Below are positions 4,762 through 63,992 of a stretch of 64,000 nt of DNA, in pieces (the first letter of the stretch is position 1; each line of letters opens with the position of its first letter). The DNA lies in assembly GCA_041674405.1 (NCBI GenBank), contig JBAYVT010000004.1, positions 10,599-74,598 on the forward strand, given 5' to 3'. Source of the DNA: Patescibacteria group bacterium (lineage in GTDB: Bacteria > Patescibacteriota > UBA1384 > XYA2-FULL-43-10). The notes below the pieces were generated by a model, which ran no database searches, was not told where the DNA came from, and saw only the letters and a list, made by a program, of their open reading frames with translations. A program made the position numbers and the translations under genes.

Positions 4762-4917
4762 AAATAAAAAACGCCATAAGTTTACCCGACGGCGCTCAAT
4801 ATTCCTATGGATTTATTTACTATCTCAACCTTTTAATCTTGAATGCAAGTTCGAGGATTTTAAGATTTTGGGTGTATTTTTGACTTTTGTCCGCCAGCTA
4901 GCGGATTGACTTTTGAG

Positions 4918-5619
4918 CTATCCGCGCGTATACACTTCTGCGTGGTTTGATACCCCAAAAGACTTTCCGAGATATTCGTTTAGGGCAAGCATCGCTTCAT
5001 CGTATTTTTTGACTCTAAGCTGGCTTTTGTGAGAGCGCGCAGCCTCTTTTTTTATTTCGATATACTGGTCTATTGGAAAAATAATATTGGGCTTGCCAAT
5101 TCCCCACACACTGTAATACCACACTTCCGGCTTTTCCTTAAGCTTGGAATAAGCGGTAAAAAAATGTTTATGGATCACCACGTGATCCGGGTGCCAATCT
5201 GATTTATCCGGCACCAAAATTAAATCAATTGGGCGGGTTGCAATTTCCTCAAGTATCCGAACCCAAAGATCAGAATTTGCCGGGGAATCATCTTTAAGCC
5301 GAAGAAAGTTTACTTCGGAGTGCCCGAGCACCCGCACCGCTGAAACGGCTTCTTTTTCGCGGGCATCAATCAATGATTCATCTCGCGAGCCAATCTTGTT
5401 TCCTTTTGCGCCATCAAAAAAATAGAGGGTTTTAATTTTCGCCCCACCCTGTATTAGGTGTGCAAGCAACCCTCCGCAGCTAAAAACATCATCATCGGGA
5501 TGAGGAGAGAGCACAAGAACATGGCCTGCTATCACATGGTCAACTACTTTTGCAGAAAGCCATGACCTCGCAGCAGAATGAACTAGGTCTTCTTCTTTTT
5601 TATGGTGAACATGAAACAT
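4918..5619 (-). CDS. PIG-L/LmbE family N-acetylglucosaminyl deacetylase
   Basis: Carries the LVLSPHPDDDVFSCGG metal-binding motif (the HPDD signature of the LmbE/PIG-L family) and is 233 aa long. Confidence 0.8.
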   Translation of the reverse strand: MFHVHHKKEEDLVHSAARSWLSAKVVDHVIAGHVLVLSPHPDDDVFSCGGLLAHLIQGGAKIKTLYFFDGAKGNKIGSRDESLIDAREKEAVSAVRVLGHSEVNFLRLKDDSPANSDLWVRILEEIATRPIDLILVPDKSDWHPDHVVIHKHFFTAYSKLKEKPEVWYYSVWGIGKPNIIFPIDQYIEIKKEAARSHKSQLRVKKYDEAMLALNEYLGKSFGVSNHAEVYTRG

Positions 5620-5907
5620 GGCAACCCAAGAATTACGAATTAAGAATTACGAATTAAGGTTTTGGATTTTTTTATTAATCCATTTGTCATTTTACTTAAC
5701 TCGACTGTTTTTAACGCCAATCCTTTAAAGCAAATGTCAGTAATAAAATTGACATCTTTAGCAATAATTAATTGGTTTTGTACTTCAGTCAAAGATCCCA
5801 AGGAAATCGAATAAAAGTTTGCTTTATCCTTTGATTCTTAATTCTTGCTTCTTGATTCATCTTGACTGATTTATGATACTTGATTCTTAAAATATGCGGA
5901 GGAAGAT

Positions 5908-10832: not shown

Positions 10833-11444
10833 TTACTCAGCTTTGGTCTCTTCGTCTTCGGCTTCGTCAGCCTTTTCCTCTGTGGGTTCGGCAGCACGCT
10901 CGTCTGTGTTTGATCCGGCTTCGACTTCCTCGGCTTCACCATCAGCTTTTCCGCTTCTGGCTGCTAGGGCGCTTTCCGCCTTCTTTGCTAGCTCGGCGTC
11001 TTTCTCCGCTTTCTTCGCAGCATCGGCTTCGGCTTGTTTGGCTTTTTCCGCCTCAATTTTGGCTAGCTCTTCCTCGGCTTCTTTCTCTTCCCACATCTTG
11101 TACTCGCGGCTTTGTTCTTTCAGGCGGGCATTCTTGCCGGTAAGCTCGCGCATGAAGTAAAGCTTGGCACGACGAACCTTCGAGTGTTTGATTCGCTCTA
11201 TCTTGATGATTCTTGGCGAATGAAGCGGGAAAACTCGCTCAACACCGATACCAAAAGACTCCTTGCGGACTGTGAAGGTGCCATCAAGGCCTTTTCCGTG
11301 CTTCACTGCAATAACAAGGCCCTCAAAGATCTGGACACGCTCTTTGGCGCCTTCTTTGACCTTGAGGTGTACTCGAATCGTGTCACCAGAGACAATGTCC
11401 GGAACATTTTTTTTCATCAATTTTTTCTCGATTGTGGTTTGCAT
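10833..11444 (-). CDS. rplS: Ribosomal protein L19 with a roughly 100-aa Lys/Glu/Ala-rich C-terminal extension
   Basis: Core [32 protein letters not shown]...[24 protein letters not shown] matches L19. The start was taken at the internal Met (MQTTIEKK). The tail is a [13 protein letters not shown]-type low-complexity region. Confidence 0.85.
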
Positions 11445-11685
11445 TTTACAATTCCGATCTAATTCAGACTTCTGCACTCAAGATTTTGAATTCAGGAGTC
11501 CGCTCTCCTCCCGCCAGTGACGGGAGGAGAGCCGGAGAGGGCGACGAGCCCGGTGGACCTTCGTCCAAACGAGCAAGTCGTGATGCTCCACTCTACCCTG
11601 CAGGAGTCGAGTGGCTTGCTGCACGAGGACAGCGCGCTGACACTAGCCCCTCGTGCAACGAGATGGAGTCTCTCGTGCGAGCGTG

Positions 11686-12030
11686 TTACCTCACCGTCGC
11701 CGAAAACTGGCTCCTCGCTAGGGGCGAGGACTCGAAGTGATAGACGAGGGCCTGCGCCCATCCCGGATCTACGGGAACCCTCGGGCTTAGCAGGATCTCC
11801 GGGGTGCTGATGAGCCGAGGCCCATCTGCCGCGACAATGTGTACTCCTTCGCCAGGCATACGGTAGACAAGCAAGTTCCCGCCCTCGGACCAGGCATAGC
11901 CGCACAGCCCCCTGACGACACTCTGGAGGGTGTGCTGCCCGAGCTTGACCAGCTCACGGACGAGGTCTTCGTACCCCGAACGCATGAGCTGTATCCACTT
12001 TGCCCTACGATTCGAACTTCTCTTAGCCAT
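11686..12030 (-). CDS. Hypothetical protein in a GC-rich (about 60%) island
   Basis: GAGGAGG lies 8 nt upstream of the ATG (ttgaGGAGGaagcacgATG). The 114-aa protein is rich in Arg/Leu/Val and has no recognised motif. A 75-aa ORF at 12023..12250 (-) directly upstream may be a second island gene. Confidence 0.45.
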   Translation of the reverse strand: MAKRSSNRRAKWIQLMRSGYEDLVRELVKLGQHTLQSVVRGLCGYAWSEGGNLLVYRMPGEGVHIVAADGPRLISTPEILLSPRVPVDPGWAQALVYHFESSPLARSQFSATVR

Positions 12031-21660: not shown

Positions 21661-22005
21661 TTATTTCTTCGAATTATTTATGCTTGGCAGATCTGATAGA
21701 GCAATAATATCCAATGCAATTTCTTCGTAAGGATGATTTTCCTTAATGACTTCTAGCGCTTTTTCAATGTCAGATTTAGGACAGATGAATTCCAGTTTCA
21801 CCTCTTCGGCTTCCTCAATTTTTCCAACTTCACCAATCGCCGGATCTGCGCCTTTGAGGGGCCGAAAATATCCTTTGCCCTCTGATATGAATGAACAATA
21901 ATCATAATTGCCCATTTTGCCAATACCGGCTTTGCCGAGAGCAAGTCGTAATTGTTCAATGTGATTTTTTGGCACGAAAACATAGATTTTAACAAATTGA
22001 TTCAT
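21661..22005 (-). CDS. CutA/PII-like small protein
   Basis: C-terminal ALEVIKENHPYEEIALDIIAL resembles the CutA HHPYxxPE region, and the 114-aa size fits a PII-like fold. Confidence 0.45.
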   Translation of the reverse strand: MNQFVKIYVFVPKNHIEQLRLALGKAGIGKMGNYDYCSFISEGKGYFRPLKGADPAIGEVGKIEEAEEVKLEFICPKSDIEKALEVIKENHPYEEIALDIIALSDLPSINNSKK

Positions 22006-22027
22006 GACCTATCTCCTCTTACGGAAA

Positions 22028-22129
22028 GCTCCGCCCGAAAAGTCCCTACGGGGCATTTCCCGACTCCTTCCCGTTTGAATCCCATCAAAAAGTCCAACCG
22101 CATAGCCCGACGAATCGGGCGACGTGGAA
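22028..22129 (-). repeat. Conserved roughly 100-nt element directly 3' of tRNA-Ser(TGA); homologous to 33957..34045
   Basis: Starts TTCCACGTCGCCCGATTCGTCGGGCTATGCGG and continues ...AACGGGAAGGAGTCGGGAAATG.... It shares long identical blocks with the sequence that follows tRNA-Ser(CGA). Confidence 0.6.
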
Positions 22130-22220
22130 TGGCGGAGAGAGTGGGATTCGAACCCACGAGAGCCTTGCAGCCCTACCTGTTTTCAAGACAGGCGCACTAG
22201 ACCAACTATGCGATCTCTCC
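22130..22220 (-). tRNA. tRNA-Ser (anticodon TGA), class II with a long variable arm and encoded CCA
   Basis: Folded by hand: acceptor GGAGAGA/TCTCTCC, anticodon stem CCTGT/ACAGG with loop CTTGAAA, T-arm GTGGG-TTCGAAT-CCCAC. Confidence 0.85.
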
Positions 22221-22221
22221 A

Positions 22222-22314
22222 TGGCGGAAGGTGTGGGATTCGAACCCACGTGGCGGCTTTTAGACCACCGACGGTTTAGCAAACCGTTCCCTTAAGCCTC
22301 TCGGGCAACCTTCC
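22222..22314 (-). tRNA. tRNA-Ser (anticodon GCT), class II with a long variable arm and encoded CCA
   Basis: Acceptor GGAAGGT/ACCTTCC, anticodon stem ACGGT/ACCGT with loop TTGCTAA, T-arm GTGGG-TTCGAAT-CCCAC. It lies 1 nt upstream of tRNA-Ser(TGA). Confidence 0.85.
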
Positions 22315-33866: not shown

Positions 33867-33956
33867 GGTGAGGTGCTAGAGTGGTTGAATAGGCCGGTCT
33901 CGAAAACCGGTATGCCCGCAAGGGTATCGTGGGTTCAAATCCCACCCTCACCGCCA
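33867..33956 (+). tRNA. tRNA-Ser (anticodon CGA), class II with a long variable arm and encoded CCA
   Basis: Acceptor GGTGAGG/CCTCACC, anticodon stem CCGGT/ACCGG with loop CTCGAAA, T-arm GTGGG-TTCAAAT-CCCAC. Confidence 0.85.
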
Positions 33957-34045
33957 TCCCACGTTGCCCGATTTATCGGGCTATGCGGGATGAAGAACAG
34001 AATTTGAACGGGAAGGGGTCGGGAAACGGGAGTTTCCCGCTTCGG
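33957..34045 (+). repeat. Conserved element directly 3' of tRNA-Ser(CGA); homologous to 22028..22129
   Basis: TCCCACGTTGCCCGATTTATCGGGCTATGCGGG...AACGGGAAGGGGTCGGGAAACGGGAGTTTCCCG. The first 32 nt are nearly identical to the element after tRNA-Ser(TGA). Confidence 0.6.
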
Positions 34046-34108
34046 AAAAAACTAAAAACCGAGGGTTTTTAGAAGCTTGTCTCGAGGAACCGAGAGGCGA
34101 AGCGCTCG

Positions 34109-34129
34109 AAATCCCACCCTCACCGCCAT
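34109..34129 (+). repeat. Perfect 21-nt duplicate of the 3' end of tRNA-Ser(CGA) (T-loop through CCA)
   Basis: AAATCCCACCCTCACCGCCAT occurs at 33937..33957 inside the tRNA and again here, 150 bp downstream, at the edge of a GC-rich island. Confidence 0.7.
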
Positions 34130-34199
34130 TTGACGAGTTTATATCTCCAACTGAAAAAGCCGGCGCAAACTTCACGCCGACTTTTTAGTTCCTCACCTC

Positions 34200-34919
34200 C
34201 TATTTCACCGCGCAGATTATGTCGTAGTTGGGCTCTGCCGCAAGGTTTGGTCTCAAGACTCTCTTCACCCCTAGCCCCCGAACAAGCCCTTCCATTTCGT
34301 TTGGCGCAAGCAAATACGAAAGTGAGCGGTTCTGGAACTGCTGCCCGCGAACGATACCCTTCCCCTCTATCACCCGCGTTCGCCGAAACCAATCGTGGGT
34401 GATGTCAACCGCCATGCTGTAGCCGAGGAAGGAAAGGTTCAGGTGACCACCACCCTGATCAATCTCGTGCTGTGAGATCGTGTCGAGGTAGAGAAGTCCG
34501 CCGCTTTTTAAGGCAGCGAGCATTTCTTTTAGGCTTCTTCCGATCTCCATGCGACACCGACCAGGATCGAAGATATCGCCCTTCCCCCAGCCCCCCACGT
34601 TTGTTAAGCTGTTACCTCTGCATATCACAGCGTCGAAAGTCCTGGCCAGCTCGCGAGCCTTCCGCCAATCCAGTTTGCGAAACTCAATCGCCGGATGGCT
34701 GTGGCGAGCAGTGGCGATGTCGATCATCTCTTCGTCCGCATCGATCCCGACCCCTGTAAAGCCGCGCTCTGCTAAACCGTGCAGCACATGCCCACCGCCG
34801 CATCCACACTCGATGATTGTTCTGACGCCGAGTTCCCGCAGTAAATCCGCTAGTTCTTTGATGAACTCCGAGCCATACATCAGCTCGGACAAGATTACCC
34901 ACTGCTGTGACAGAGTCAC
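34200..34919 (-). CDS. Class I SAM-dependent methyltransferase in a GC-rich (about 57%) island
   Basis: Motif I IIECGCGGGHVLHGLAE and motif II GVGIDADEEM. A terminator hairpin lies downstream, and the gene overlaps the upstream gene by 4 bp. Confidence 0.75.
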   Translation of the reverse strand: MTLSQQWVILSELMYGSEFIKELADLLRELGVRTIIECGCGGGHVLHGLAERGFTGVGIDADEEMIDIATARHSHPAIEFRKLDWRKARELARTFDAVICRGNSLTNVGGWGKGDIFDPGRCRMEIGRSLKEMLAALKSGGLLYLDTISQHEIDQGGGHLNLSFLGYSMAVDITHDWFRRTRVIEGKGIVRGQQFQNRSLSYLLAPNEMEGLVRGLGVKRVLRPNLAAEPNYDIICAVK

Positions 34920-35560
34920 GTGCCTTCAACCTCCTTCATCATGATCACTCGCAGGCCTCCTGTTGCTGCGTCCTCCGGAATAAAATCCGGAGCTATCCAG
35001 AGAAACTTACCCCCAAGCCGGTAGTAGAAGGCCAAGAGCGGGTCGAGGCAAAGTTCGCGATCAGTAGGAAAGGGCCCTCCCGCGAGATGTCGATCTATCG
35101 CCTCCTTGAACGCGGGCCTTTGTCTAATCCCTTCTCTTGGGCTTCCATTGTAGGAGGCCGGCCTCCCGTCAGCTATTCCAAGGATGCAACCATCCGACTT
35201 AATTCGACCAAGCATAGCTTGCGCCAGTAATACTGCTGTGCGGGCATTGCGATACTTATCCTGCACGTTGAGGTTGTAGACGAAGGCACAATCATGGCTG
35301 GTCTCCATCGGCATCGTCGAGAACTCCCCAAAGTTTCTGGAAAATGCTTTGGGATCACTCGGATAAAACCGGGAGTAGGAAAAGCAGATTTTCCCAACCA
35401 GCTCCCCGTCCAGTCTGGCCCCAAGCATGATGTGTCCAAGGCGCAGCCGCTGCTCGATCAGCTCACGGCTGGCGCGCAGATAGGGCGGGAACGACAGGTT
35501 CTCGTCTTCGAGGATTTCGTCCAAATCCTCGAAAGACAACTCGACTATCATCGTGTCCAT
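34916..35560 (-). CDS. Putative GNAT-like acyltransferase in the GC-rich island (start at MDTM, with AGGAGG 7 nt upstream)
   Basis: GC-rich coding begins at the internal Met; upstream of it, the 45 codons of the longer ORF are AT-rich and unlikely to be coding. AFVYNLNVQDKYRNARTAVLLAQAM resembles a GNAT motif A region. Confidence 0.45.
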   Translation of the reverse strand: MDTMIVELSFEDLDEILEDENLSFPPYLRASRELIEQRLRLGHIMLGARLDGELVGKICFSYSRFYPSDPKAFSRNFGEFSTMPMETSHDCAFVYNLNVQDKYRNARTAVLLAQAMLGRIKSDGCILGIADGRPASYNGSPREGIRQRPAFKEAIDRHLAGGPFPTDRELCLDPLLAFYYRLGGKFLWIAPDFIPEDAATGGLRVIMMKEVEGT

Positions 35561-35710
35561 AATGTCTCGCCTCCTTTGGATTCTTCGAAACAAAAAATTA
35601 TCCCTCCGTCTTGGCAGGATGTCAATAATTTGCACAGGGATTTTGTTAGTGATATCCTTTAATCGAGATTGTTTTATTAAAATGTTGTCAAAGTTTTTCA
35701 CAAATAAGTT

Positions 35711-36469
35711 ATGAACTTACAGGCAATTTTAGAGGAATTCGGGCTTTCCAAACGCCAGGCCAGCGTCTATCTGGCAAATTTGGAGTTGGGAGAGGCGAGT
35801 GTTGCTCAAATTGCCGAAAAAGCTCAAATCGAGCGTACTGGCACCTACTACGTTATAGAATCGCTGTGCGGCAAAGGCCTTATCGTCGAGATTGAGCGAG
35901 GCAAAAAAGATTTTTTTGTCGCCATCGAGCCAAAAGAGCTGCTATCAATTGCAAAAAGAAGAGAAAAGTTGATATTAGAACACCTGCAGGAATTTGAGGC
36001 CTTTTCGAATATCTCCTCGGAGAAACCTCATGTCCGCCTTTACACCGGAATCAACGGAATAAAAACGGTTTTTTTAAAAACAATTGAGAAACCAAAAATA
36101 CAGATGCTGGGCTTTTCACCCTACAGAACAGCCGAGAAAACCGCCTGGTACAACGGCAAAGAGTATGTGGAATGGGGTTTGGACTATATCAGGAAACGAG
36201 CCTCCAGAAGGATTTTCGCTCGCACCATCGCTGAAGATACACCGGAATCACAAGCGCGCAAGGGGAGAGACGCTGAAGAACTGCGGGAAACACGTCTGGT
36301 TCCACACGATAAATTCCTGTTCACCAACGAAATAGCCATCCTCGACGATTGGGTCGCGGTAATTTCATACAAAGAGATGGCTGCGCTTGTAATTGAATCA
36401 AAAGAATTTACTAAAACAATGAGATCAATTTTTGAACTAGCATGGGATGGAGCGGAAAAATATTTGTAG
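35711..36469 (+). CDS. TrmB-like HTH transcriptional regulator (paralog of 9357..10115)
   Basis: EEFGLSKRQASVYLANLELGEASVAQIAEKAQIERTGTYYVIESL at the N-terminus, and about 252 aa like its paralog. Confidence 0.6.
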   Translation: MNLQAILEEFGLSKRQASVYLANLELGEASVAQIAEKAQIERTGTYYVIESLCGKGLIVEIERGKKDFFVAIEPKELLSIAKRREKLILEHLQEFEAFSNISSEKPHVRLYTGINGIKTVFLKTIEKPKIQMLGFSPYRTAEKTAWYNGKEYVEWGLDYIRKRASRRIFARTIAEDTPESQARKGRDAEELRETRLVPHDKFLFTNEIAILDDWVAVISYKEMAALVIESKEFTKTMRSIFELAWDGAEKYL

Positions 36470-36521
36470 CCCAACGGATATTTCAGTTAATAATTTTTGA
36501 CTTGCAATTTTGATTTTTGAG

Positions 36522-39355: not shown

Positions 39356-39868
39356 CTAGAAGCGGCCGATGTTGTACTGGGCGCAGACGCTGTCGTCCTG
39401 CCCATCCACGCAGAGCCGGTATAGCCCTGATGCGCGGCCGGACTTCCAACAGAACTGGATGGTCTGGTAGGGCTTGCACCCCGCCTGGTATTTCACATAC
39501 CCCATCGCATCCAGGCCCCTCACGATCTTGACCGGCGGCGTCGTAACGTCCGCCCGCCACGGGTCGTATCCCCACACACGAAGACACGAATTCCAGGGGT
39601 TGACCTCGGCGCCGAGCCTCAGCCGCTCATTGTCCGTCCTGGCAAGCCAGAGGACATCGGCCGGCTTGTACCCTGCCATCAGCAGAGTGTAGGGCCCGTC
39701 CACCTGCTGTTCGGCGTAGAACCACGCCGAACCGCGAGCAACGGTCACGGTTGCAGCCGTGTACTCGCCTTGGACGAACACACCCGGAGACACCGACACC
39801 TCGTCCGCGAAAGCGACCGAGACGGACAAAGCCAACATTGCGATCAGAACAGCGGTAATAGCGCGCAT
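39356..39868 (-). CDS. Secreted Cys-containing hypothetical protein encoded by a GC-rich (about 62%) single-gene insert between rnpA and rpmH
   Basis: Signal peptide MRAITAVLIAMLALSVSVAFA. AGGAGG lies 7 nt before the ATG, with a TTGACA-15-TATATA promoter upstream and a GC hairpin terminator downstream. Confidence 0.55.
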   Translation of the reverse strand: MRAITAVLIAMLALSVSVAFADEVSVSPGVFVQGEYTAATVTVARGSAWFYAEQQVDGPYTLLMAGYKPADVLWLARTDNERLRLGAEVNPWNSCLRVWGYDPWRADVTTPPVKIVRGLDAMGYVKYQAGCKPYQTIQFCWKSGRASGLYRLCVDGQDDSVCAQYNIGRF

Positions 39869-43760: not shown

Positions 43761-44822
43761 ATGATATCTCGCTTGAAACTTGAAAACTATCGAAACTACG
43801 GCAAATTTGAGCTTGTCCTCGATAAATCCACTGTTCTTGTCGGCTTGAATGGCGTGGGGAAGACCAACATCCTCGAGGCTGTTGGTCTTTTATCATTTGG
43901 CAGGTCGTTTCGCGAAGAAGACAAGAAAAACTTAGTCAAATTCGATGCAGATTACGCTCGCATTACAGGTGACGAACTTACGCTGTATTTGCAGAAAAAT
44001 CCACGACTTTTAGCCGCGGCCAAGGAGCGCGGAGTCAAAAAAAAGATGTCCGAATTTATCGGCACACTCTTAACAGTCGTGTTTTCGCCCGAAACTATAG
44101 AGATAATTACCGGCTCGCCGGCCGAGAGGCGCCGCTTTCTTGATGTCATGATCTCTCAGGTTGAGCGGGAATATCTTCTGGCGCTTTCCGTCTACAACAA
44201 AGTCCGTAAACAGCGGAACCACTTATTGCAGCGGATCGGGGCGGGTGAGGCGTCCGAAACCGAGCTAAAATTCTGGGACGGAGAGCTTGTCAAGAGCGCC
44301 GAAATTATCAACGCGAGTAGGCGGGAGGCGGTAGTGTTTATCAATAAAATTTTGCCCGATTTTTACGCCAATATTTCCGGAGAGAAAGGGGAGCAGCCTA
44401 AGGTTGTTTATCACTGCAAATCGGGTGACGATTTGGCTGCGAAACTCGCTGAAAATTGGCGCCGCGAGGTGGCGTATGGAGCGACAATTTACGGCCCACA
44501 CAGGGATGATCTCGAGTTCTATCTAGACACGCGCAATATGGCAAATTTTGCCTCGAGAGGCGAGATAAGATCGGCGATTCTGGCGCTCAAAGTCGCCGAA
44601 CTCGAATTTTTAGAAAAGCATGTGAACGATCGGGCTGATCGGGAAGAGAAATATGCCTCCCCGATCCTCCTCCTAGACGATATTTTTTCCGAATTTGACC
44701 CGATTCGCCGCGAGCATTTAGGAGCCCTTATTTTGAAGTATCAATCGCTGATAACAACGACAGAAAAAGCGCACCTATCAGCCGAGCTTCTAAAAAATTC
44801 TAAAATAATTGAGTTAAAATAA
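43761..44822 (+). CDS. recF: DNA replication and repair protein RecF
   Basis: MISRLKLENYRNYGKFELVL...GLNGVGKTNILEA Walker A and a C-terminal signature region. Confidence 0.9.
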   Translation: MISRLKLENYRNYGKFELVLDKSTVLVGLNGVGKTNILEAVGLLSFGRSFREEDKKNLVKFDADYARITGDELTLYLQKNPRLLAAAKERGVKKKMSEFIGTLLTVVFSPETIEIITGSPAERRRFLDVMISQVEREYLLALSVYNKVRKQRNHLLQRIGAGEASETELKFWDGELVKSAEIINASRREAVVFINKILPDFYANISGEKGEQPKVVYHCKSGDDLAAKLAENWRREVAYGATIYGPHRDDLEFYLDTRNMANFASRGEIRSAILALKVAELEFLEKHVNDRADREEKYASPILLLDDIFSEFDPIRREHLGALILKYQSLITTTEKAHLSAELLKNSKIIELK

Positions 44823-44826
44823 TATT

Positions 44827-45099
44827 ATGGACAAGATTGAGAAGTTATTGATGGGTGCTCTCAACAAGAAGGGGCTTGCTGGAGCGGCTACAAGCTCGCA
44901 TGCCTGTTTTTTGGCCGAAAAATGGGGAAAGGGGCGGCTCAAAGCCATATCCTGCTCTCGGGGGATTCTGAAGGTCTCTGTGAGCTCATCCGCTGCTGCC
45001 CAGGAACTCTCTATGGACGAAGAAGAATTGCTCTCTCATATCAATGTTAAGATGGGTCGAGAATGCGTTAAGCGTTTACGTATAATCAACTCTGATTAA
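44827..45099 (+). CDS. DUF721 domain protein (DciA/YaaB-like)
   Basis: 90 aa directly after recF with GILKVSVSSSAAAQELSMDEEELL, typical of DUF721. Confidence 0.7.
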   Translation: MDKIEKLLMGALNKKGLAGAATSSHACFLAEKWGKGRLKAISCSRGILKVSVSSSAAAQELSMDEEELLSHINVKMGRECVKRLRIINSD

Positions 45100-45263
45100 A
45101 CGCGAAAGAGCCGCGTTGATCTTGAAGCCCCGCGATTTCCAATCGCGAGGCGTATTCAGCCAAAAAAGATTGGCTGATTTTTGGTACCGCAGGGCGAGTG
45201 GGAGAGTGATTTAAGGATATCAAAATTCTAATTGTAAATGTCAAATAATTATCCACAGAACCT

Positions 45264-45291
45264 TGACTTTGGGGCAGTATTGTGGTATATT
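45264..45291 (+). promoter_or_regulatory. Near-consensus sigma70 promoter (TTGACT, 16-17 nt spacer, TATATT) for the GC-rich gene; a perfect DnaA box TTATCCACA lies just upstream at about 45249-45257
   Basis: ccTTGACTttggggcagtattgtggTATATTgg, then a roughly 80-nt leader and AGGAGG 7 nt before the ATG. Confidence 0.6.
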
Positions 45292-45374
45292 GGAGCGTTC
45301 GATAATAATCCTTAGGGCGCACAGCTGCGATTAGCGCAGGCGTCCAAGGTACTGATTGTCAGGAGGTGGCAGAC

Positions 45375-46295
45375 ATGCGTCTGTCCACGATAATTGGGTT
45401 AGCTATGATGTTGGTGTCGGGGGCGTTCGCGGGAGAGATCGCAGTCTGCCCGCAGCCTACCCCTCAGAGACTGGCGATCGCGCCGGTCTCTGCCTCGTCC
45501 CTTGGCCAGTTCGAGTGGTGGGTGGACGAAGAGGAGGCGGCCGGCCTGGTCGAGGAGCGAGCCTATGAGGTCGCTCCCTGCATTCTGGCCGCCTACAACA
45601 TGGAGCTGGTAGAGCGGAAGATGCTCGGGATCGCAGAGGCCGAGCAGGCCTTGGCAGAGGATCCGTACATGGACCCCACTACCTTCGAGCAGCCTGGCCA
45701 GGGCGTCGGCGCCAACTGGCTCCTGGTGGTTACGGTCACCAGGATGAGCGTGGAGGATAAGTCCGTGGACGTTGAGATCCGCGGCAACTCCTATCACGCT
45801 GAGAAGTCCATGATAACGGTCTGGCTGCAGGCGCGGATCGTCAATGTGGGGACGAAAGTCGTGTCACCCGCGCTATCGATTCGCAAGAACTGCACGATCA
45901 CGACTGACCAGCAGCTCAGCCTGCAGAGCGGCGAGTGGGATCTGGGCGGTGATCAGCGGACGGACATCGTGACCGATGCCGTCTATAAGATCACCGACTC
46001 TGGTCTTGCCGAGCTCTTGGGGCAGCTGCTGCCCAAGCTTGGCATCAGGACTGGGGCGCAAGCCGGATTCCGGTACGACCCGCAGACGGGCGAACGCATT
46101 TCGGTGATTGAGCAGACATACATCTGCCCGAACCCGAGATGCAACCGGATCTCGCCGAAAGGAGCGAACTTTTGCCCCTACTGCGGCGCCAGGTTGGACC
46201 GGCCCTGCGAACCCGCACCGGCAATCGAAAGGGCGCGGCCCTGTGAGCCGCCACCAGCCGCTAACCGCGACAAGGTGAACCACGCCGGCGGATAG
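45375..46295 (+). CDS. Secreted protein with a C-terminal zinc ribbon, encoded in a GC-rich (about 60%) island
   Basis: Signal peptide MRLSTIIGLAMMLVSGAFAG. C-terminal CPNPRCNRISPKGANFCPYCGARL Cys4 ribbon. A GC-rich hairpin terminator at 46321-46357. Confidence 0.55.
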   Translation: MRLSTIIGLAMMLVSGAFAGEIAVCPQPTPQRLAIAPVSASSLGQFEWWVDEEEAAGLVEERAYEVAPCILAAYNMELVERKMLGIAEAEQALAEDPYMDPTTFEQPGQGVGANWLLVVTVTRMSVEDKSVDVEIRGNSYHAEKSMITVWLQARIVNVGTKVVSPALSIRKNCTITTDQQLSLQSGEWDLGGDQRTDIVTDAVYKITDSGLAELLGQLLPKLGIRTGAQAGFRYDPQTGERISVIEQTYICPNPRCNRISPKGANFCPYCGARLDRPCEPAPAIERARPCEPPPAANRDKVNHAGG

Positions 46296-46377
46296 CCGGC
46301 ACCAAGGAGGAGAAGTACCAAAGGAGCGCCCTTAACCGGGCGCTTCCTTTGTGTTTAAATAGGTTATTAGTTTTTAG

Positions 46378-49300
46378 TTAAAATCCGACATGTGTATACG
46401 CGGTAGTCTGTGGATTTGCCCACATGCCAGCCTTGGTGCCGTTACACAAGCCGTTTGTTTGCCCGCCGCCAGTGACATTTTTACATATGGTATCTGATGT
46501 AAGTGCTGACCAAGCATTTACATCTTCCCAACGGCCGGTCATGACCTGGGTTGGGACGAGCTTTTGATCATCTGTACTTGATGGCATGTCGTATAAGTTT
46601 TGGATGAATTTATTGGCCTTGTATTGTGCAGCCTCAATTATCTTTCTCTCTCTGGTTTTACTGTCTATACCATTCCATACCCCGAGATTTCCGTTGTCCA
46701 CTATATCGGGTGATGGTGGTGATTCGATGCTAGGATAATAACCATCAGCTGTACACAAGTATTCAACTTTGTAAACACCAAAGAGGTTATTGTAAAGGAT
46801 AATTGCCACATCAATTGCTGCTTGTATCCAGTTGCCATACAGAAAGCTGATAGTGGCATCCAGAAGAAGCGATAAGGTGCCAGGAGCAAGTCCGAGCTGC
46901 TCGTCCCATTTTGCCAATGTGTCGCCCAGAACAAGCCTTGCCGCATAAGAGATTGCCGCAGCCTTGGCATTTGCAAGATTGGCACCAGAAGCCCCGCTTC
47001 CGCCGGACGCAGCAAATGCCTGCTCTGCCTGTTTAAAGTTCTGGTACAAATTATAAAGATTTTGGCTTGTGCCTGGCGGCAGACCAAATGTCTTGTCAAC
47101 AAATCCGCCAACAAAGTTTAGGGCAAACGATGGGCCCCCATAAATGTCTGCTAGAGATTGAAGCTTATTTCCAGCTATTGATAGTGCCCCTTCTAAGCTT
47201 CCAGTCTGAAGAAATCCAAGAATACCACCGAATGTGCCTTGGCCGAAATCGACCCCAAAAATCGAGGCTGCCTTACCTGTAATGTAATTATCTATTGTGT
47301 TAACGAGAGTTCCGTCGGCAGTGGCTGATCCCAAAAGGCCATTCAAAGCGCTCTTAAAGTCAAAGCTGTTCGGATCAGAAATAAAATTTTGTAGTGTTCC
47401 CAAGAATCCGCCCGGAAGAAAATCTATTCCGAGGTCATTCCGGATTAAGCCCTCGGCATATTCAAGTAGGGTAGTTGTCCGCGTCCAATCATTCCCCTGA
47501 AACATGCTGCGGGCAAAATCGGCAGGAATATTCGGATCCAGCCTGTGCAAGGCTAAATCAATTGATTTATACTCCACTCCCTGGCTCCAAATATTTGTAG
47601 CAAAGTCGATTGCTGCTTGCCCAGCGTTTAAGACATCAAGCGCTCGAGTATTGCCAATTCGAACATTTAGAAGGCTGTCAATTGCCGCCCCTGTATCAAT
47701 CCCAGCAGTAATGCGCAATCCATTGTCAACTTGAAGATTTAGAATCGGCGCACTTGAAGTATCCGATGCACCCGGGAAATTAAGGCCAATGTTAATAATC
47801 CCGTTTGGAGGCCCAAGGTTAGATGATGTAGTAGAATCGGACAATATCCCGGTTGAAACGTTGAAGGTGGCGTTACCGGCGGCGATCGTCCAGTTGTAAC
47901 TAGAATTAGTCAGCTGGTTCCATCTTTGTTGCTCTGCTGCCAGGCGAACGGCAATTTCCTGTGTTAAATCTCCATATACCAATCGCGTTAGATCGCTAAA
48001 ATTAAACTTGAATGAATTTAGGGCATTTATTGCGTTGTCGTATGTTTCAAATATTCCCAAATTGAAGGGCAATCCGTCTTTGCCGGAATACATTTGGGGG
48101 ATATTCATGACTGCACCTAGGAGCTGAATCGGCCTAAAATCCCCATAGAGAATTTGCTGGAAAGTTGAAGAGTCAAACCCGTCCATGTTTAGGAGATTTT
48201 TGAGAGAATATTCCAGGTTGCCGGCAATATCTTTGATCGTGAAATTAACTTGCAAATCTTTAAAAGCGTCCCCGACAAGTGTGTTTAACTGTCCCCCGAT
48301 CGTGGACTTGAGGCAAGATTCCGTATCTCCACTGCCGCCAAATATCGAGAGCCCGCATCTTATGTCCGGATTGCCCAAGATCAATGTCTTGAATACTGAA
48401 GTCAATCCTAAACTGCTGTCAAATGCCTCGGCACCAAAGGATATTAATCTGTTAAAAGTTGTCTGAGGGTCTTGCAGAATTGTGGCCATGGTGCCTTCCG
48501 GCAAACCGGCTTTTTTATCCAGATTCCAAGAGAAAATATTGTTTAATGTACCATAAAGATCACCCATGTTATCGCCGGGATCTTTGATCCAGGTGATGAG
48601 ATTGTTTATGTCGCCATCTGTTATTTGCCTGTCGCTGCCGTCTTGTAGCCCGAGTCCTTTTATCAAACCCGAAATCAAATTGTTCTGAGTTGCGGCATCA
48701 GTAACCTGGCGTACGTATTGGTTTATCGGGAAAATCTCACCCAGGCTTCCCGCGGTTGGCGAGGCAAGAAGCTTGACTGTTGTGCCATCCGGCAGCCCGA
48801 GATTGCGATCCAGAAAAGATAATCTGCCAACGAAGTTGTTCCACGAAGGTTCGTTCTGGCTAAATAAGGTGGCAATTGTATCCGAATTAAATCCACCGGT
48901 GCTTCCTTTTGAGACCAGGGAATCAATTGTCTTTTGTAATGCATCATTCACTCCGGTCCAGTTAGTGCCTAAGGCCTGGTAATAAGTTACAACGGAGTTT
49001 AGTTTTTGATAAAAGCTGTTTCCTGCATTCACATTAAAGAAATTTTCACCCATAGACTTTAATTCTGCATTTACAACACTGATCTCTTCTTGGCTTACCG
49101 GAATTTGGAACGCTTCGGCAAATTTAACAACCCCGACATTCTTTGCAACACCCAAAATATTTCCGCTTTTTAGCGACCCAGCCGGTAATCCGAGCAGTGA
49201 CTCTGCTTTATTTGACCCAACACTGCTACCGGTGAACAAAGAAGCCAAGTCAAGGTTGCCTGTGCCAATAGAGTTACCGATAAGATTAGTTGATATTTGA

Positions 49301-60586: not shown

Positions 60587-62077
60587 TTATTCTATCGGTG
60601 AAAGAATGTTCGTTTCATTGGCAAGAGCGCCGAGAAATGCACCGCCAACTGCTAGCAGGCCCGTGCTAGATGCCTGGGATTCCGGAGTTGGATTTTGTTT
60701 GTCGAAACCGCCCCAGCCATCATAATATCCCATTGAATCCAAATCCAGCCCATCAAAATCTTCGCCTAAATGGCCTTTTTCTGATTGGACGATTCTCTTT
60801 ATGGTGTTATAAAAAACTAAGTACGATTCGATTGCGCGGGAGATCCCGGGATGTTCCGTCCTTAACTTTTCTATTGAAAAATTTCCGCCGGCGATACCTT
60901 CGGCAATTTCGGCATATTTTGTACTAATTTCTCCTGATTGATCTGTATCCGATTCACTAATGCCGAGTTCTGAACTGGAGAAACGGCTGAAACTGCCGGG
61001 ATCGAGCTTTTTAAGGCATACCTCTAAAAAGCTCAAGAAGCTTCCATCGCTCTGGAGATAAATGGCAGTGTAATCGGTTACAATTTCTTCTGCTGCCATG
61101 ATTTCGCGCGACTTTGTGAACTTTTCTTCCGACCCCCATTTTGCTTTTTCTGTCGGTGAGAGTGAATTATATTCCGATTTTTCCAAGCTCTTAATCACGT
61201 TTCTGACGTGTTGCGGCTGAAAATCAATATAATCTTTTGCATTTCGAATGATTTCTTTTGCCTCTCTAAGCGAAATCTCGATCGGAGAATTGGCATTTTC
61301 TTCATCTGCTTCGGATTCTTTGTGTTTTGCGACAGCGACTATTCCGTGGGATATCTCGTGGTCGATCATTTGAACAAAATCCAAGCTCAGGATTTTTCCT
61401 TCGGAAGTTGCAAAATTATCTTTCAGGGCAGATCTCGAGAGTTTGATAACCCCTCCCCCAAAAGACATAATCCCTTCATAACCAGCCGAGGCTCGAGATT
61501 CGTCCTCTAAACTATCGGATATTTCAACATTTTGAACGAGTGTACAGACATCATTAGCGGTAAGGTGCCCATTGATTATCGGGAGAGATAGGGCATAAAG
61601 GATCTCTGTTTTTTTACTCAATACTCCCGAATACTCAGGGTTTTTTGATAACTCGGAAATAGCGGCATCTGAATCTTGAAACAGCGCTTCTGAACGTGCG
61701 ATAAAAATCGCCGTCTCAGTGAGAGCGCTACTAGATGGCGCAGACTCTCCGTATCGCTCTTTTAATATCGCATAAATTTTTTCAATCAGGTAAGAATTCA
61801 GATTTTCGTCCGATATATGATTGAGGAGAATTGCAAAAACTTCTCTCTTGTCCAGGGAGTGGCTTTTATTTTCGTGAGTCATTCTTTTCGTTGCTTCGAG
61901 AATAGAGGGACGATTCTGCTCGGTAATTTCAACTTCACCGGAATGATCTATCTCCGGTTCTGCCCCTTCCTGGCCTTCGTTGCCCCCTTCTGGTTGTTCT
62001 CTTGTTTGATCCGCTTCCGAAATTTCTGGCGATTGTCCAGGTGGGCCAGCAGAAGGGTTTGGGGCGTCAGTGGCCAT
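60587..62077 (-). CDS. Hypothetical protein with an HExxH motif (candidate zinc metallopeptidase), an acidic low-complexity N-terminus and a hydrophobic C-terminal segment
   Basis: MIDHEISHGIV contains HEISH; no signal peptide; the C-terminus TGLLAVGGAFLGALA is hydrophobic. Confidence 0.45.
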   Translation of the reverse strand: MATDAPNPSAGPPGQSPEISEADQTREQPEGGNEGQEGAEPEIDHSGEVEITEQNRPSILEATKRMTHENKSHSLDKREVFAILLNHISDENLNSYLIEKIYAILKERYGESAPSSSALTETAIFIARSEALFQDSDAAISELSKNPEYSGVLSKKTEILYALSLPIINGHLTANDVCTLVQNVEISDSLEDESRASAGYEGIMSFGGGVIKLSRSALKDNFATSEGKILSLDFVQMIDHEISHGIVAVAKHKESEADEENANSPIEISLREAKEIIRNAKDYIDFQPQHVRNVIKSLEKSEYNSLSPTEKAKWGSEEKFTKSREIMAAEEIVTDYTAIYLQSDGSFLSFLEVCLKKLDPGSFSRFSSSELGISESDTDQSGEISTKYAEIAEGIAGGNFSIEKLRTEHPGISRAIESYLVFYNTIKRIVQSEKGHLGEDFDGLDLDSMGYYDGWGGFDKQNPTPESQASSTGLLAVGGAFLGALANETNILSPIE

Positions 62078-62108
62078 GACAGCCTTTCTTTTTTATCGTC
62101 AAATTATC

Positions 62109-63992
62109 TTATTCGGGATTTGCGCTTGGTGGTTCTGCGGGGGGAGTCGGAGGGGGAGTCGGTGTTGAATGGGTCTCAGGGCGTGGGGTAGACGGCGCCT
62201 CTACGGTAGTATTGTTGTTGATCACAGTTGTGTTCTGAACTGGGTTTGGCCGAACCGCATCAACGGCCCTTGCAGGTGATACGCGTGAAGATGCTTTTGC
62301 TGTGGCGCTGCCGATTTCGCGAGCAAGAGATTTTTGGAATCTTTCACTCATTAGTGTTGATGCGAGCGAATCCCCGCCGGAAACCCCCGAAGCAGCGGCA
62401 ACGCTTCCCAGGATGGAACTTGCCTGCATCGGTGAGTACGAAACAGCTGCTCCTCCTCGAGCTGCAGCGGTGGCTTGTGCAACCTGGTTCACATGTTGGG
62501 TCAACGCTTCGATATGATCGGAACCTTCGGCAAAGCCATCGCCAACCGAAATATTCTCAAATTGAGAAGCTAATTGCTTGGTTTGGTCGGCCATGCTCTG
62601 CATCGATAATCTGGCGGAGGCAGTAGCTTCGGCAGCAGTTCTTAGTTCGGTCTGTTTGGAAGTCTGAAATTGTTTAAGAGAGTCTGACCAGGCTCGCCCT
62701 TCTGTTGAAGTCAGTTGTCCGGAAGCAGCCATTGATCTTGCGTTTACGGCTGCCTGCTGAACCTGTTGAAACGTTGAAGCTAACTTTTGTTTGGCGGCGG
62801 GATCGCTCGTGCTAATTTTGGGTACTCCCATCTTACTAGCAATTTTGGCCGCCTCTTCAATATCACCAGCCTGAAGCTTGCTTGCGCCTGCGGCAGCATC
62901 CTGAGAAATCAATGCCAGCTTAGACCCTAGACCTTGTGGGGAAACACCGCTCATTTGGCCACGGATTAGCCTCAAACCTGCAATTTGGTCTTCGATTTGT
63001 TGGGCTCCTGCTTCAACCTCTTCGTTAACCATGGAATCACGAGCCTTCCTAACATCTTCAAAGTGTTTTCGGAGTTCTTGTTGCGCTCCAGGACTCATTG
63101 CAGCAACATCACCACCCAATCTTTGAGCCAGTTGGTCAAAATTTTCATTGCTGTGCATTGCGGCACGAGAGACCTGATCAGCCTGTGCACCAGCAAGAGC
63201 CCTAATTCCCTGGCTTGCACCGCTGATAGATGCAGCTTCTGTAGTAGCTTGGGCAGCTGCCTCAATTTCTTCACCAACAGGAGAAGAAAATCCGGAAGCA
63301 TCCATGTTTCTGTTTCTTTTTCGCAAAGCTCCGGTTGTAGGATCTCTGGACTCGTCGGTTCGGAATCTCCCTTTTTCTTTACTTACAGCATCAATACTTT
63401 CCCCATTAAAAAATTTCAAGGCTTCATCATGTCCGTCGGCACTGGAATTTCCAGCCCTTCTGGTAAGTTCCTTATACTTCGCCATATATTCCCTTGATTG
63501 CGCCCAACTCATCTTTTTGTCTCTAAATAATTTTCCGTTTTTTCCTGGAGTTGCAACTTCGCCTGTTTCAGGATCGATCTCCATCGCTCCGGCCAACTTA
63601 GAAACTTCTTCATATTGCCAGGTTTTTTGTTCATCGAGAGAATCAGCCCTTAATGCGGCCCTTACTCGACCCTGGGCTCCCTTTGGCAATTTTCCGCTCA
63701 TCATAAGATCAAAGTACCTCTGGTTGAGTGCCTCTTTCTCGTACTTAGCTCTCACGTCCTGCGGAATTTGCTTAGCGGCTTTTCTATTCATCATCATCTT
63801 ACCCAAACGAGTCAGCTGAAAATCTCCTTTTTTATCATGATATCCGATCATCCTGTTCTGGGCTCTGGTTTTGACATTGTCATATTTTTCCTTCGCAAAA
63901 TCACCGGCGTATTTGGCAGCCCGACCGCCTGTCTTATTCCATCCCCATTTGCCAAGGTTGTTCCATGCTGTCATCACGCCTTTACCCATCAT
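62109..63992 (-). CDS. Ala/Gln-rich predicted coiled-coil protein with a Pro/Thr-rich C-terminal tail; the N-terminus may extend beyond the window
   Basis: 627 aa of AQ-rich heptad-like sequence, with no TM and no catalytic motifs. The first Met lies 8 nt from the window end. Confidence 0.45.
   Translation of the reverse strand: MMGKGVMTAWNNLGKWGWNKTGGRAAKYAGDFAKEKYDNVKTRAQNRMIGYHDKKGDFQLTRLGKMMMNRKAAKQIPQDVRAKYEKEALNQRYFDLMMSGKLPKGAQGRVRAALRADSLDEQKTWQYEEVSKLAGAMEIDPETGEVATPGKNGKLFRDKKMSWAQSREYMAKYKELTRRAGNSSADGHDEALKFFNGESIDAVSKEKGRFRTDESRDPTTGALRKRNRNMDASGFSSPVGEEIEAAAQATTEAASISGASQGIRALAGAQADQVSRAAMHSNENFDQLAQRLGGDVAAMSPGAQQELRKHFEDVRKARDSMVNEEVEAGAQQIEDQIAGLRLIRGQMSGVSPQGLGSKLALISQDAAAGASKLQAGDIEEAAKIASKMGVPKISTSDPAAKQKLASTFQQVQQAAVNARSMAASGQLTSTEGRAWSDSLKQFQTSKQTELRTAAEATASARLSMQSMADQTKQLASQFENISVGDGFAEGSDHIEALTQHVNQVAQATAAARGGAAVSYSPMQASSILGSVAAASGVSGGDSLASTLMSERFQKSLAREIGSATAKASSRVSPARAVDAVRPNPVQNTTVINNNTTVEAPSTPRPETHSTPTPPPTPPAEPPSANPE

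Follow-up and report, generated by a model that had tools for sequence, protein, structure and literature searches.

The classic mark of integrative elements is a direct repeat in which a tRNA 3' end is copied from the T-loop onward, and the tyrosine-integrase elements and genomic islands that target tRNA genes reportedly carry att repeats beginning in that loop. A second arrangement with the same appearance, the tRNA-linked repeat (TLR), has been an unexplained oddity of Escherichia coli since 1978. TLRs were first seen in that species (Egan & Landy 1978; Rudd 1999), where they number 22 copies and have no known function (PMC8144298). By definition, a TLR belongs to a tRNA or rRNA operon, where it comes directly after the RNA gene and shares its orientation, and its 3'-terminal 18 to 19 bp repeat the 3' end of that gene exactly; a dual-terminator arrangement of these repeats has also been described (PMC8144298). 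RrA, RrB and RrF are E. coli TLRs situated between two rrn-operon terminators, after the 5S rRNA, and their binding to Hfq and CsrA has been shown in vitro (PMC8144298).

In the window (the whole stretch of DNA analysed here, 64,000 nucleotides), both ARAGORN and Rfam called a tRNA-Ser(CGA) gene at 33867-33956 on the + strand, and the perfect 21-nt duplicate of its 3' end that the sequence-only reading had reported is present at 34109-34129. This 21-mer, AAATCCCACCCTCACCGCCAT, occurs exactly twice in the window (33937-33957 and 34109-34129), with 0.00 chance matches expected over 100 shuffles even at 3 mismatches, and tRNA-Ser(TGA) supplies the sole other near match, its 3' end at 22129, with 3 mismatches. 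The second copy reproduces 20 nt of tRNA-Ser(CGA) and 1 more nt identically; it starts 152 nt after the end of the tRNA, and the 151 bp between the two 21-mers are non-coding. In our judgment, the duplicate is probably the 3' terminus of a TLR-class element of about 172 bp, inserted right after tRNA-Ser(CGA) and oriented like it. The features of this unit, and of a second copy elsewhere in the window, are as follows.

33867..33956, + strand: tRNA-Ser(CGA) gene, CCA gene-encoded (ARAGORN; Rfam tRNA model, 59 bits)
33937..33957, + strand: repeat copy 1, an exact 21-mer comprising the last three T-loop bases, T-stem 3' strand, acceptor 3' strand, discriminator, CCA and 1 further nt
33957..33990, + strand: trailer hairpin TCCCACGTTGCCCGATTTATCGGGCTATGCGGGA, with no U-tract after it (fold; trailer comparison)
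33998..34009, + strand: X', the 5' anti-T-loop segment CAGAATTTGAAC, a partly decayed complement of the tRNA T-loop
34010..34103, + strand: conserved core GGGAAGGGGTC with hairpins P2 and P3 and a variable hairpin region containing GCGAAGCGC (model R1, 110 bits)
34020-34039, + strand: hairpin P2, GGGAAAC/GTTTCCC with a GGGA loop (covariation)
34052-34072, + strand: hairpin P3, AAAAACC-GAG-GGTTTTT, separated from P2 by a purine-rich linker (covariation)
34104..34129, + strand: T-loop-like junction GCTCGAAATCC (exceeding a T-loop by 1 base), then repeat copy 2 (34109-34129)
34149..34190: hairpin between A- and U-runs (fold, z = -3.2)
21970..22092, - strand: second, degenerate copy behind tRNA-Ser(TGA) (22130-22220, -) (model R1, 27.8 bits, E = 2e-4; sequence)

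On this reading, the element runs from the trailer hairpin through X', a core of about 95 nt and the T-loop-like junction to X. X' is a short segment complementary to the T-loop and T-stem of the tRNA, the core holds two covarying hairpins and purine-rich single strands, and X is the exact tRNA 3'-end copy, namely the last three T-loop bases, the 3' strands of the T-stem and acceptor, and CCA. In better-preserved family members, X' reaches up to 21 nt complementary to the tRNA 3' end; the window copy has decayed and still pairs with the tRNA-derived 3' segment over about 11 bp (-13 kcal/mol). Hairpins homologous to the trailer at 33957..33990 stand behind other element-bearing tRNA-Ser genes (the window's tRNA-Ser(TGA) and loci L022 and L182), and the trailer of a further locus, L141, begins in the same way. 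While this trailer hairpin lacks a U-tract, copy 2 is followed by a terminator-like hairpin at 34149-34190, which is predicted to work as a terminator in both directions and which separates the tRNA/element unit from a convergent methyltransferase gene. The copy behind tRNA-Ser(TGA) kept its trailer hairpin and the start of its core and lost the 3' half with the tRNA-end copy; no 3'-end copy of tRNA-Ser(TGA) was found within 1500 nt downstream of that gene.

The element of tRNA-Ser(CGA) belongs to a large multi-copy family, with at least 115 distinct relatives in metagenomes. Its members follow tRNA or tmRNA genes on the same strand, and most of them end in that gene's own 3' end. Among the matches listed that had at least 160 nt of upstream sequence, a same-strand tRNA was located within 150 nt upstream in 91 of 108, and an opposite-strand tRNA in none of the 108. 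The upstream tRNAs among the matches listed represent at least 18 isotypes and at least 35 isoacceptors, and one element has a tmRNA gene upstream. In a first pass, a perfect 10- to 20-nt copy of the tRNA 3' end closed the element in 84 of the 99 with an upstream tRNA among 124 pattern matches listed. The homologous elements of the same layout behind tRNA-Ser genes in L022, L006 and L012 illustrate this point, as their terminal copies match the local tRNA despite the differences between the tRNA sequences of these loci.

The structure is likewise a property of the family. Both hairpins, P2 and P3, covary across it; 97% of cells are paired and 12 pairs show changes on both sides, values that none of 500 shuffles reached, and the G-U pairs fall on the tRNA-sense strand. 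The pairing of X' is specific to its own tRNA-end copy (permutation test, p = 3e-4), with X' in one locus (L127) forming a perfect 21-nt complement of that copy. The duplication is about 10 nt to more than 60 nt long and always begins in the T-loop, and in 9 of 77 loci, against 0.8 expected, the direct repeat runs on into the trailer. Because the repeat in some members reaches the tRNA trailer and terminator, the duplication took place at the DNA level, with one fixed boundary in the T-loop. Related loci carry 2 to 3 element copies or arrays. Among the genes around the elements, small GIY-YIG genes were seen in 7 loci.

Compared with the TLRs of E. coli, the window element begins immediately after the last base of tRNA-Ser(CGA) and on its strand, ends in 20 nt of the tRNA plus 1 more, and has a degenerate second copy in the window besides the multiple copies of related loci. 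The tyrT/tyrV repeats of E. coli (178-bp TLRs, RttR/rtT, RF00391) have the same layout and, like the window element, come straight after a tRNA gene and share its strand. The E. coli TLRs and the family agree in further respects: the last 18 to 21 nt are the tRNA 3' end including CCA, the structure is closed by a 5' stretch that complements the 3' strands of T-stem and acceptor, and the repeats are multi-copy, with tandem arrays possible. This closing X':X helix, weak in the window copy and clear across the family, also closes the Rfam RtT consensus structure, and in RefSeq the RttR RNA is annotated up to the CCA of the copy. Junction motifs resembling those of E. coli TLRs occur in the metagenomic GGGGTGACC-core subtype (5' (G)GAUGAGAA(C/G) and 3' (C/G)UGAGU(A/G)(A/U)UCC), whereas the junctions of subtype a, which includes the window copy, differ (GGAUUCGAAC / GYUCGARAUCC), the 5' motif in the window being a decayed GAAUUUGAAC.

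However, the core sequence of the family is unlike that of the E. coli TLRs, its hosts are of the Patescibacteria/CPR lineage rather than Enterobacteriaceae, and it spans at least 18 tRNA isotypes and tmRNA. The Rfam RF00391 RtT model did not detect the element at its gathering threshold of 45 bits, nor either subtype at E <= 10, while the E. coli control gave 4 matches at 133 to 138 bits; in the reverse direction, model R1 did not detect the E. coli TLRs (best match, 7 bits). Since neither model detects the other family, homology with the E. coli TLRs rests on architecture and short junction motifs. No Rfam family of any kind matched the element at E <= 10, and our literature search found no paper with the core sequence and none tying TLRs to CPR bacteria. 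Because the TLR architecture is present and the RtT model gives no detection, we call the element a new form of TLR-type repeat. The family architecture is TLR-like with a different, strongly conserved core, and its more than 100 members come from Patescibacteria-type metagenomes, where they stand behind nearly every kind of tRNA, and one behind tmRNA; the TLR phenomenon is therefore phylogenetically broad and extends beyond enterobacteria. The diversity of the family, with its trailer-reaching repeats, mixed-core arrays and covarying arms, provides comparative material on the origin and role of such units.

As for what the element may do, the annotation of RttR and the case of RrB in E. coli offer an analogy. 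Read-through from the tRNA promoter would transcribe the element, X' would pair with the tRNA-like 3' end, and the enzymes of tRNA 3'-end maturation might then trim the RNA at the copy to give a stable small RNA. A full intrinsic terminator stands between tRNA and element in many family members, so transcription may be weak. Many of them lie between two terminators, like RrA/RrB/RrF, and transcription would need read-through of the first; as in those RNAs, the 3' end copies that of the upstream stable RNA, although RrA/RrB/RrF follow 5S rRNA, which the family does not. The window core is GGA-rich, with five GGA in about 45 nt, and in this respect resembles the CsrA-binding RrB. No homologues of CsrA, Hfq or RNase Z were found in about 2 Mb of locus sequence, a small sample that is weak evidence either way.

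A rather unlikely alternative is a mobile cassette that is non-coding and purely selfish, inserted duplicatively at the T-loop of tRNA or tmRNA genes and with no role as a host RNA, so that the tRNA-end copy and its complement serve to recognize the target and not to guide RNA processing. The target duplication of variable length with one fixed T-loop boundary fits such a cassette, as does the variation in X' length, which resembles 5' truncation. Arrays combine different cores with the same tRNA-end copy, several copies may occupy one locus, copies in one genome share lineage-specific insertions (e.g., L169), and presence among relatives is patchy; full terminators often intervene between tRNA and element, and a Logan contig breaks exactly at the start of the repeated core. 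A SINE-like RNA could anneal through its tRNA-like tail to a tRNA gene that has been nicked and so undergo target-primed reverse transcription, or the cassette might recombine as a folded single-stranded hairpin. As an analogy of mechanism only, SINE/LINE target-primed retro-insertion likewise combines one site-specific junction with a variable target duplication and a variable 5' end, and uses a structured RNA whose 3' tail is homologous to the target; unlike in SINE/LINE systems, no reverse transcriptase partner was found near the elements, and the comparison is inferential. To our knowledge, no target-primed system of the SINE/LINE type is known in bacteria.

Against a selfish cassette, clustering of 1686 ORFs within 4 kb of elements revealed no enriched reverse transcriptase, transposase or recombinase family, the commonest protein family occurring in 9 loci. 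A 19-mer of the core had 0 matches in 2.9 million viral contigs, blastn against phage and plasmid collections returned nothing for the core, and no pair of empty and filled alleles was found. Moreover, the core is strongly conserved and an old insertion (L102) has kept its copy unchanged, which suggests constraint beyond mobility. Equally tentative is the broader proposal that TLR-like cassettes in general are active, self-propagating non-coding elements whose duplicative insertion at the T-loop is guided by base-pairing between arm and target gene. If it were true, these cassettes would constitute a nucleic-acid-guided mobile element of about 100 nt without a protein gene of its own, and self-propagation would also account for the origin of the E. 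coli TLRs.

Far less probable is the interpretation from which this work started, in which the two 21-mers are taken for the attL/attR footprint left by a tyrosine-integrase element at tRNA-Ser, with the neighboring methyltransferase and acyltransferase genes as decayed cargo of that element or as the mark of a second use of the att site. These genes, together with a third, are the following.

34200..34919, - strand: class I SAM-dependent methyltransferase, outside the repeat pair (Pfam Methyltransf_25, 48 bits against a cut-off of 27)
34916..35563, - strand: GNAT-like protein, a weak assignment (Acetyltransf_1, 19.8 bits against a cut-off of 20.7)
35711..36469, + strand: TrmB-family regulator, divergent, third gene of the module (Pfam TrmB)

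The direct repeat of the 3' end from the T-loop agrees with the classic signature, the two enzyme genes are GC-rich, and the flank is variable. The gene order RnpA-YidD-YidC-(Jag)-(DUF192)-tRNA-Ser(CGA)-PilB is retained in 22 related loci of Berkelbacteria-like type, and none of the 22 has the TrmB, GNAT-like or methyltransferase gene; several relatives carry other accessory genes beside tRNA-Ser(CGA), including a GH1 hydrolase, an AbiEii toxin and a diversity-generating retroelement (bAvd + reverse transcriptase), and the variable regions of four relatives contain a retroelement of this type, toxin-antitoxin genes, a glycosidase and a sigma factor. The data support the view that the 3' flank of tRNA-Ser(CGA) is a variable insertion site. 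Nevertheless, the enzyme genes lie outside the repeat pair, and only the 151 bp of non-coding DNA lie inside it. That inter-repeat segment is a conserved non-coding family found behind at least 18 tRNA isotypes, with a core absent from the viral, phage and plasmid collections searched. The absence of an integrase gene was borne out by Pfam, with no integrase domain within about 10 kb, and the suggested intact element at tRNA-Ser in relatives did not materialize, as the ORFs scanned beside the tRNA in four of them (L015, L016, L022 and L024) included no integrase. Nor did the proposed att copy on the far side of the gene pair appear, since up to 37100 we found no third repeat with up to 5 mismatches and no T-loop-like junction motif.

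The att-scar interpretation is thus largely refuted, and of the integration hotspot proposed in the sequence-only reading, the variable tRNA 3' flank and an inserted segment bounded by the 21-mers stand, but the integrase att footprint does not. The element does share with tyrosine-integrase elements the tRNA 3'-end direct repeat from the T-loop, an intact tRNA gene and tandem accretion at the same site. It differs from them in lacking an integrase or coding cargo, in a unit of only about 150 bp, in one core serving many tRNAs, and in a repeat that varies in length and may include the host trailer. Integrated islands are as a standard called where a tRNA gene has a piece of its own 3' end behind it; TLR-like elements mimic this arrangement and lead to false island calls, as here.

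There is next to no chance that the second 21-mer is a remnant of a tandem tRNA-Ser duplicate with a decayed 5' part, for which tandem tRNA-Ser genes elsewhere in the window (22130-22314) and a faint anticodon-loop resemblance just upstream of the copy might speak, since the family data refute it: at the T-loop, identity breaks off sharply, from 100% to none, loci of at least 18 isotypes have the intervening sequence in common, and the 5' arm reverse-complements the tRNA 3' strand instead of copying the 5' strands of the tRNA. In L199 and L101, for example, the 5' arm reads GAGGG against GGGGG in the tRNA. A tRNA with an internal deletion was rejected on the same ground, the 5' arm being the exact complement of the 3' strand. 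A copy made from mature tRNA, of the retroviral primer-binding-site type, was rejected because copies behind CCA-less tRNA genes have no CCA after them, and a DNA transposon or MITE because the inverted arms (X' and the tRNA-end copy) are present but the duplication is not of fixed length.

If the duplicate is the end of a TLR-class element, the methyltransferase, GNAT-like and TrmB genes would be a separate unit that landed in the same variable flank. The three form a conserved module that occurs elsewhere with no tRNA nearby. Of what had been read from the sequence about the gene pair, the 4-bp overlap (34916-34919) and the SAM-methyltransferase assignment, which lies above its Pfam cut-off, hold; NCBIfam and PDB give only distant small-molecule N-methyltransferases for this protein, whose homologues are at most 50% identical. 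The acyltransferase call is less secure, as the ORF is present and the GNAT score falls below its cut-off, with no NCBIfam match and no PDB sequence match. The repeat does not directly border the pair as had been stated, because a 70-nt stretch with the hairpin lies between them, and the pair is indeed GC-rich against 44% in the window, at slightly lower values (methyltransferase 55.4%, GNAT-like 54.2%) than the 57% given. The argument that high GC proves a recent transfer of the pair is weakened by L205, which has the same pattern at about 50% protein identity, with GC-rich enzyme genes and a regulator at host GC; elevated GC is therefore no evidence of recent transfer. The GNAT-like protein is 51% identical to the partner gene of the methyltransferase homologue in L205, and the TrmB regulator is 47% identical to the L205 regulator, which has the same position and orientation.

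The 3' end of tRNA-Ser(CGA) is duplicated in the window. The 21-mer AAATCCCACCCTCACCGCCAT occurs exactly twice, at 33937-33957 and 34109-34129, with 0.00 chance matches expected from shuffles when up to 3 mismatches are tolerated, which verifies that the duplicate recognized in the sequence-only reading is real and non-random. The copy starts with the last three T-loop bases and continues through the 3' strands of the T-stem and the acceptor to the discriminator, CCA and 1 further base. Beyond these two sites, the only approximate match falls on the 3' end of tRNA-Ser(TGA). The region is arranged as follows:

33867-33956, plus strand, tRNA-Ser(CGA), on which ARAGORN and Rfam agree
34149-34190, hairpin with flanking A- and U-runs, between the copy and the methyltransferase gene
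34200-34919, minus strand, methyltransferase gene
34916-35563, minus strand, weakly GNAT-like ORF

We read the hairpin as a bidirectional terminator; because it stands between the copy and the gene pair, the two do not directly adjoin as had been proposed. The coordinates bear out the claimed 4-bp overlap of the two genes, and the pair does exceed the 44% GC of the window, but its GC content is 54-55%, a small correction.

By comparing the window with the related loci L022, L006 and L012, we found that in each a copy of the tRNA-Ser 3' end follows the gene at a distance of about 140-170 nt. These copies agree with the local tRNA despite the tRNA sequences differing among loci, and window 33957-34108 is clearly homologous to the inter-copy sequences of all three. 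The conserved element consists of nine parts, in which X is the closing copy and X' a 5' segment complementary to it:

1, trailer, frequently a hairpin
2, X', complement of the T-loop, of the T-stem 3' strand and of 0-7 nt on the acceptor 3' strand
3, the sequence GGGAAGGGGTC
4, hairpin P2, GGGAAAC/GTTTCCC with a GNRA loop
5, linker rich in purines
6, hairpin P3, AAACC-GNG-GGTTT
7, variable hairpin
8, T-loop-like junction, of T-loop length plus 1 base
9, X, the exact tRNA 3' end

A second, degenerate copy of the element (21970-22092, minus strand) lies behind tRNA-Ser(TGA) at 22130-22220; it retains the trailer hairpin and the core start, whereas the place of its 3' half and tRNA-end copy is taken by the 5' part of a protein-coding gene starting at about 22004.

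Scanning the metagenome collection for an exact pattern yielded at least 120 stretches with family members, comprising at least 115 distinct instances after duplicate removal. Linkage and orientation are strict: among the matches listed, 91 of the 108 instances whose upstream sequence reaches 160 nt or more have a same-strand tRNA gene within 150 nt upstream, and none of the 108 has one on the opposite strand. The upstream tRNAs of the listed instances cover at least 18 isotypes and at least 35 isoacceptors, and in the first pass (124 matches listed) 84 of 99 tRNA-preceded matches end in 10-20 nt identical to the local tRNA 3' end. Among the 17 instances with no tRNA called nearby, the tRNA lies farther upstream and the element in an array in L092, L173, L202 and L196, and the element of L117 follows a tmRNA gene. 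In L152 and L174, tRNA-like 5' and 3' halves stand about 300 nt apart upstream of the element; they were missed by ARAGORN, Rfam gave no tRNA or intron there at gathering threshold, and the insert looks like a group I intron. A 194-aa multi-pass membrane protein is encoded in L159 (oriented to the minus strand, 486-1385) by a cassette of about 900 bp, with tRNA-Trp on one side and a partial tRNA 3' half on the other, after which comes an element copy; therefore, tRNA-end copies can also bound protein-coding cassettes in these genomes.

A covariance model trained on 42 members found 114 matches in 100 sources among the matches listed, with at most three copies per 10-kb locus, and only three copies, all already known, in 1.2 Mb of PilB-anchored genome loci. 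Cassettes with other cores in the same frame occur in L173, L092 and L202, as well as in L005 (10168-10260) and L024 (17325-17420); their start resembles GGATTCGAA(A/C), their end copies the tRNA 3' end, and behind tRNA genes they stand singly or arrayed; the GGGAAGGGG-core family is thus one among several. As separate observations, small GIY-YIG nuclease genes (about 90 aa) lie directly behind tRNA genes or element copies at seven loci (L182 at 1040-1970, L113, L151, L091, L134, L200 and L161). L182 also has a small ORF pair, from its sequence a putative Phd/RelE toxin-antitoxin, between tRNA-Ser(GCT) and tRNA-Ser(TGA), which are just 1 nt apart in the window, and in L145 about 5 kb separate a LOOT RNA (Rfam RF03000, 66.6 bits; 2545-2660) from an element copy.

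The hairpins covary. In the 114-sequence alignment, 97% of cells pair, and both-side changes occur in 12 of 19 pairs (121 cells versus 30 in shuffles); none of 500 shuffles matched the observed pairing values, and slid controls collapse. P2 has G-U pairs on the tRNA-sense strand, which favors folding of that strand. X' pairs better with its own X than with the X of other tRNAs (duplex energies, Mann-Whitney p = 3e-4), and its own X falls within the best decile for 25 of 78 X' instances. In L127 the inverted copy is perfect over 21 nt, and the X':X pairing of L199 comprises 14 bp including two G-U pairs.

Units of the same construction, 178 bp long, are found at the tyrT/tyrV locus of E. coli K-12, in the order trailer, GGGGAAGGA, UGAGAAG, core, GCUGAGUAAUCC and TTCCCCCACCACCA, where GGGGAAGGA is complementary to the T-stem and acceptor 3' strand of tRNA-Tyr and TTCCCCCACCACCA is the tRNA 3' end. 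Such units are defined as tRNA-linked repeats (TLRs), of which E. coli K-12 has 22 at ten loci, each matching the 3' end of its upstream tRNA or rRNA gene exactly over 18-19 bp at its own 3' end (PMC8144298). The three rrn-linked TLRs are enclosed by two terminators, depend on read-through for their transcription and are bound by Hfq and CsrA in vitro (PMC8144298); similarly, many element loci have a terminator on both sides of the element. All four tyrT/tyrV units are matched by the Rfam RtT model, whose consensus structure is closed by the same X':X helix as the element. However, while the junction motifs are common to both, the cores are unrelated: the RtT model did not match the element family even at E <= 10, our covariance model did not detect the E. 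coli TLRs, none of 4,227 Rfam 15 models detects the family, and the core sequence was absent from the literature searched. We therefore file the element as a TLR-class member of a large Patescibacteria family distinct from Rfam RtT. Read-through from the tRNA would transcribe it, and the trailer hairpin in the window has no U-tract. By analogy with the RttR RNA, whose 3' end in RefSeq is at the CCA of the copy, and with RrB data, the tRNA 3'-end maturation machinery may trim the element RNA at the copy.

Several signs point to insertion or duplication at the DNA level. The direct repeat of L012 (55 nt) includes the tRNA end and the entire trailer and terminator, that of L102 reaches about 62 nt beyond the tRNA at about 70% identity, its terminator hairpin showing compensatory changes, and trailer-spanning repeats occur similarly in L107, L154, L178, L191 and L192. 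Trailer-to-trailer similarity exceeds the 99th percentile of mismatched pairs in 9 of 77 loci versus 0.8 expected. Arrays hold two to four cassettes with differing cores and an identical terminal copy, lineage-specific insertions are common to the copies of one genome (e.g., L169), and the element subtype tends to track the tRNA species. An independent Logan contig of the window locus ends exactly at the start of the repeated core, as expected of multi-copy sequence. Because the left repeat boundary is always in the T-loop, while the right boundary, the duplication length and the 5' arm vary, target-primed, annealing-guided insertion fits better than integrase recombination; we identified no enzyme for new-copy formation. 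A tRNA with an internal deletion is ruled out, since X' is the complement of the tRNA 3' strand and not a copy of the 5' strands.

The sequence-only reading had tied the duplicate, as an integrase scar, to the methyltransferase pair, and this is not supported: the duplicate belongs to a TLR-class element, and no further tRNA-end copy, such as a second att copy on the far side, bounds the genes. The GNAT-like homologue precedes the methyltransferase homologue with the same 4-bp overlap in three independent contexts, none with a nearby tRNA, and in L205 a divergent TrmB regulator also precedes the pair (49%, 51% and 47% identity to the window methyltransferase, GNAT-like protein and TrmB, respectively). 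The genes therefore form a three-gene module, 34200-36469. L205 likewise has GC-rich enzyme genes next to a regulator at host GC, so the GC excess is a property of the genes and does not prove recent transfer. No homologue of the methyltransferase exceeds 50% identity, and DPANN archaea account for several of the named matches; the protein resembles small-molecule N-methyltransferases only distantly. The L205 module lies in a polysaccharide-synthesis region (2441-6801; glycosyltransferases, Wzy, flippase) beside a second TrmB paralogue, a setting which hints that the module may modify the cell surface or a small molecule.

The window belongs to a 158-kb contig (ENA ERZ27247358), close to dnaA, and the nearest species-level genomes are Berkelbacteria-like Patescibacteria (PilB identity at most 62%). 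The order RnpA-YidD-YidC-(Jag)-(DUF192)-tRNA-Ser(CGA)-PilB, found in 22 Berkelbacteria-like loci, is ancestral; in L007, 36 nt separate the tRNA 3' end from the DUF192 end. TrmB, GNAT-like and methyltransferase genes are absent from all 22 of these tRNA-Ser(CGA) loci, and the window therefore has about 2.56 kb of extra DNA (33957-36521) 3' of the tRNA. Of the suspected integration hotspot, the variable tRNA flank stands; the integrase scar and its tie to the methyltransferase pair are not supported. In the relative L015 (568-9295), the interval from tRNA-Ser(CGA) to PilB holds a diversity-generating retroelement (bAvd and reverse transcriptase), a rubrerythrin and two proteins of very large size, 872 and 1050 aa. 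In the window, a gene at 39356-39868 (minus strand, local GC about 62%) between rnpA and rpmH, beside dnaA, encodes a 170-aa protein with a signal-peptide-like N-terminus and no domain in precomputed Pfam; the gene resembles a further small GC-rich insert within a conserved gene row. Patches of 52-55% GC also lie at 1001-3000, 11001-12000, 44001-47000 and 62001-63000, and patchy GC recurs throughout the window and is not peculiar to the methyltransferase region.
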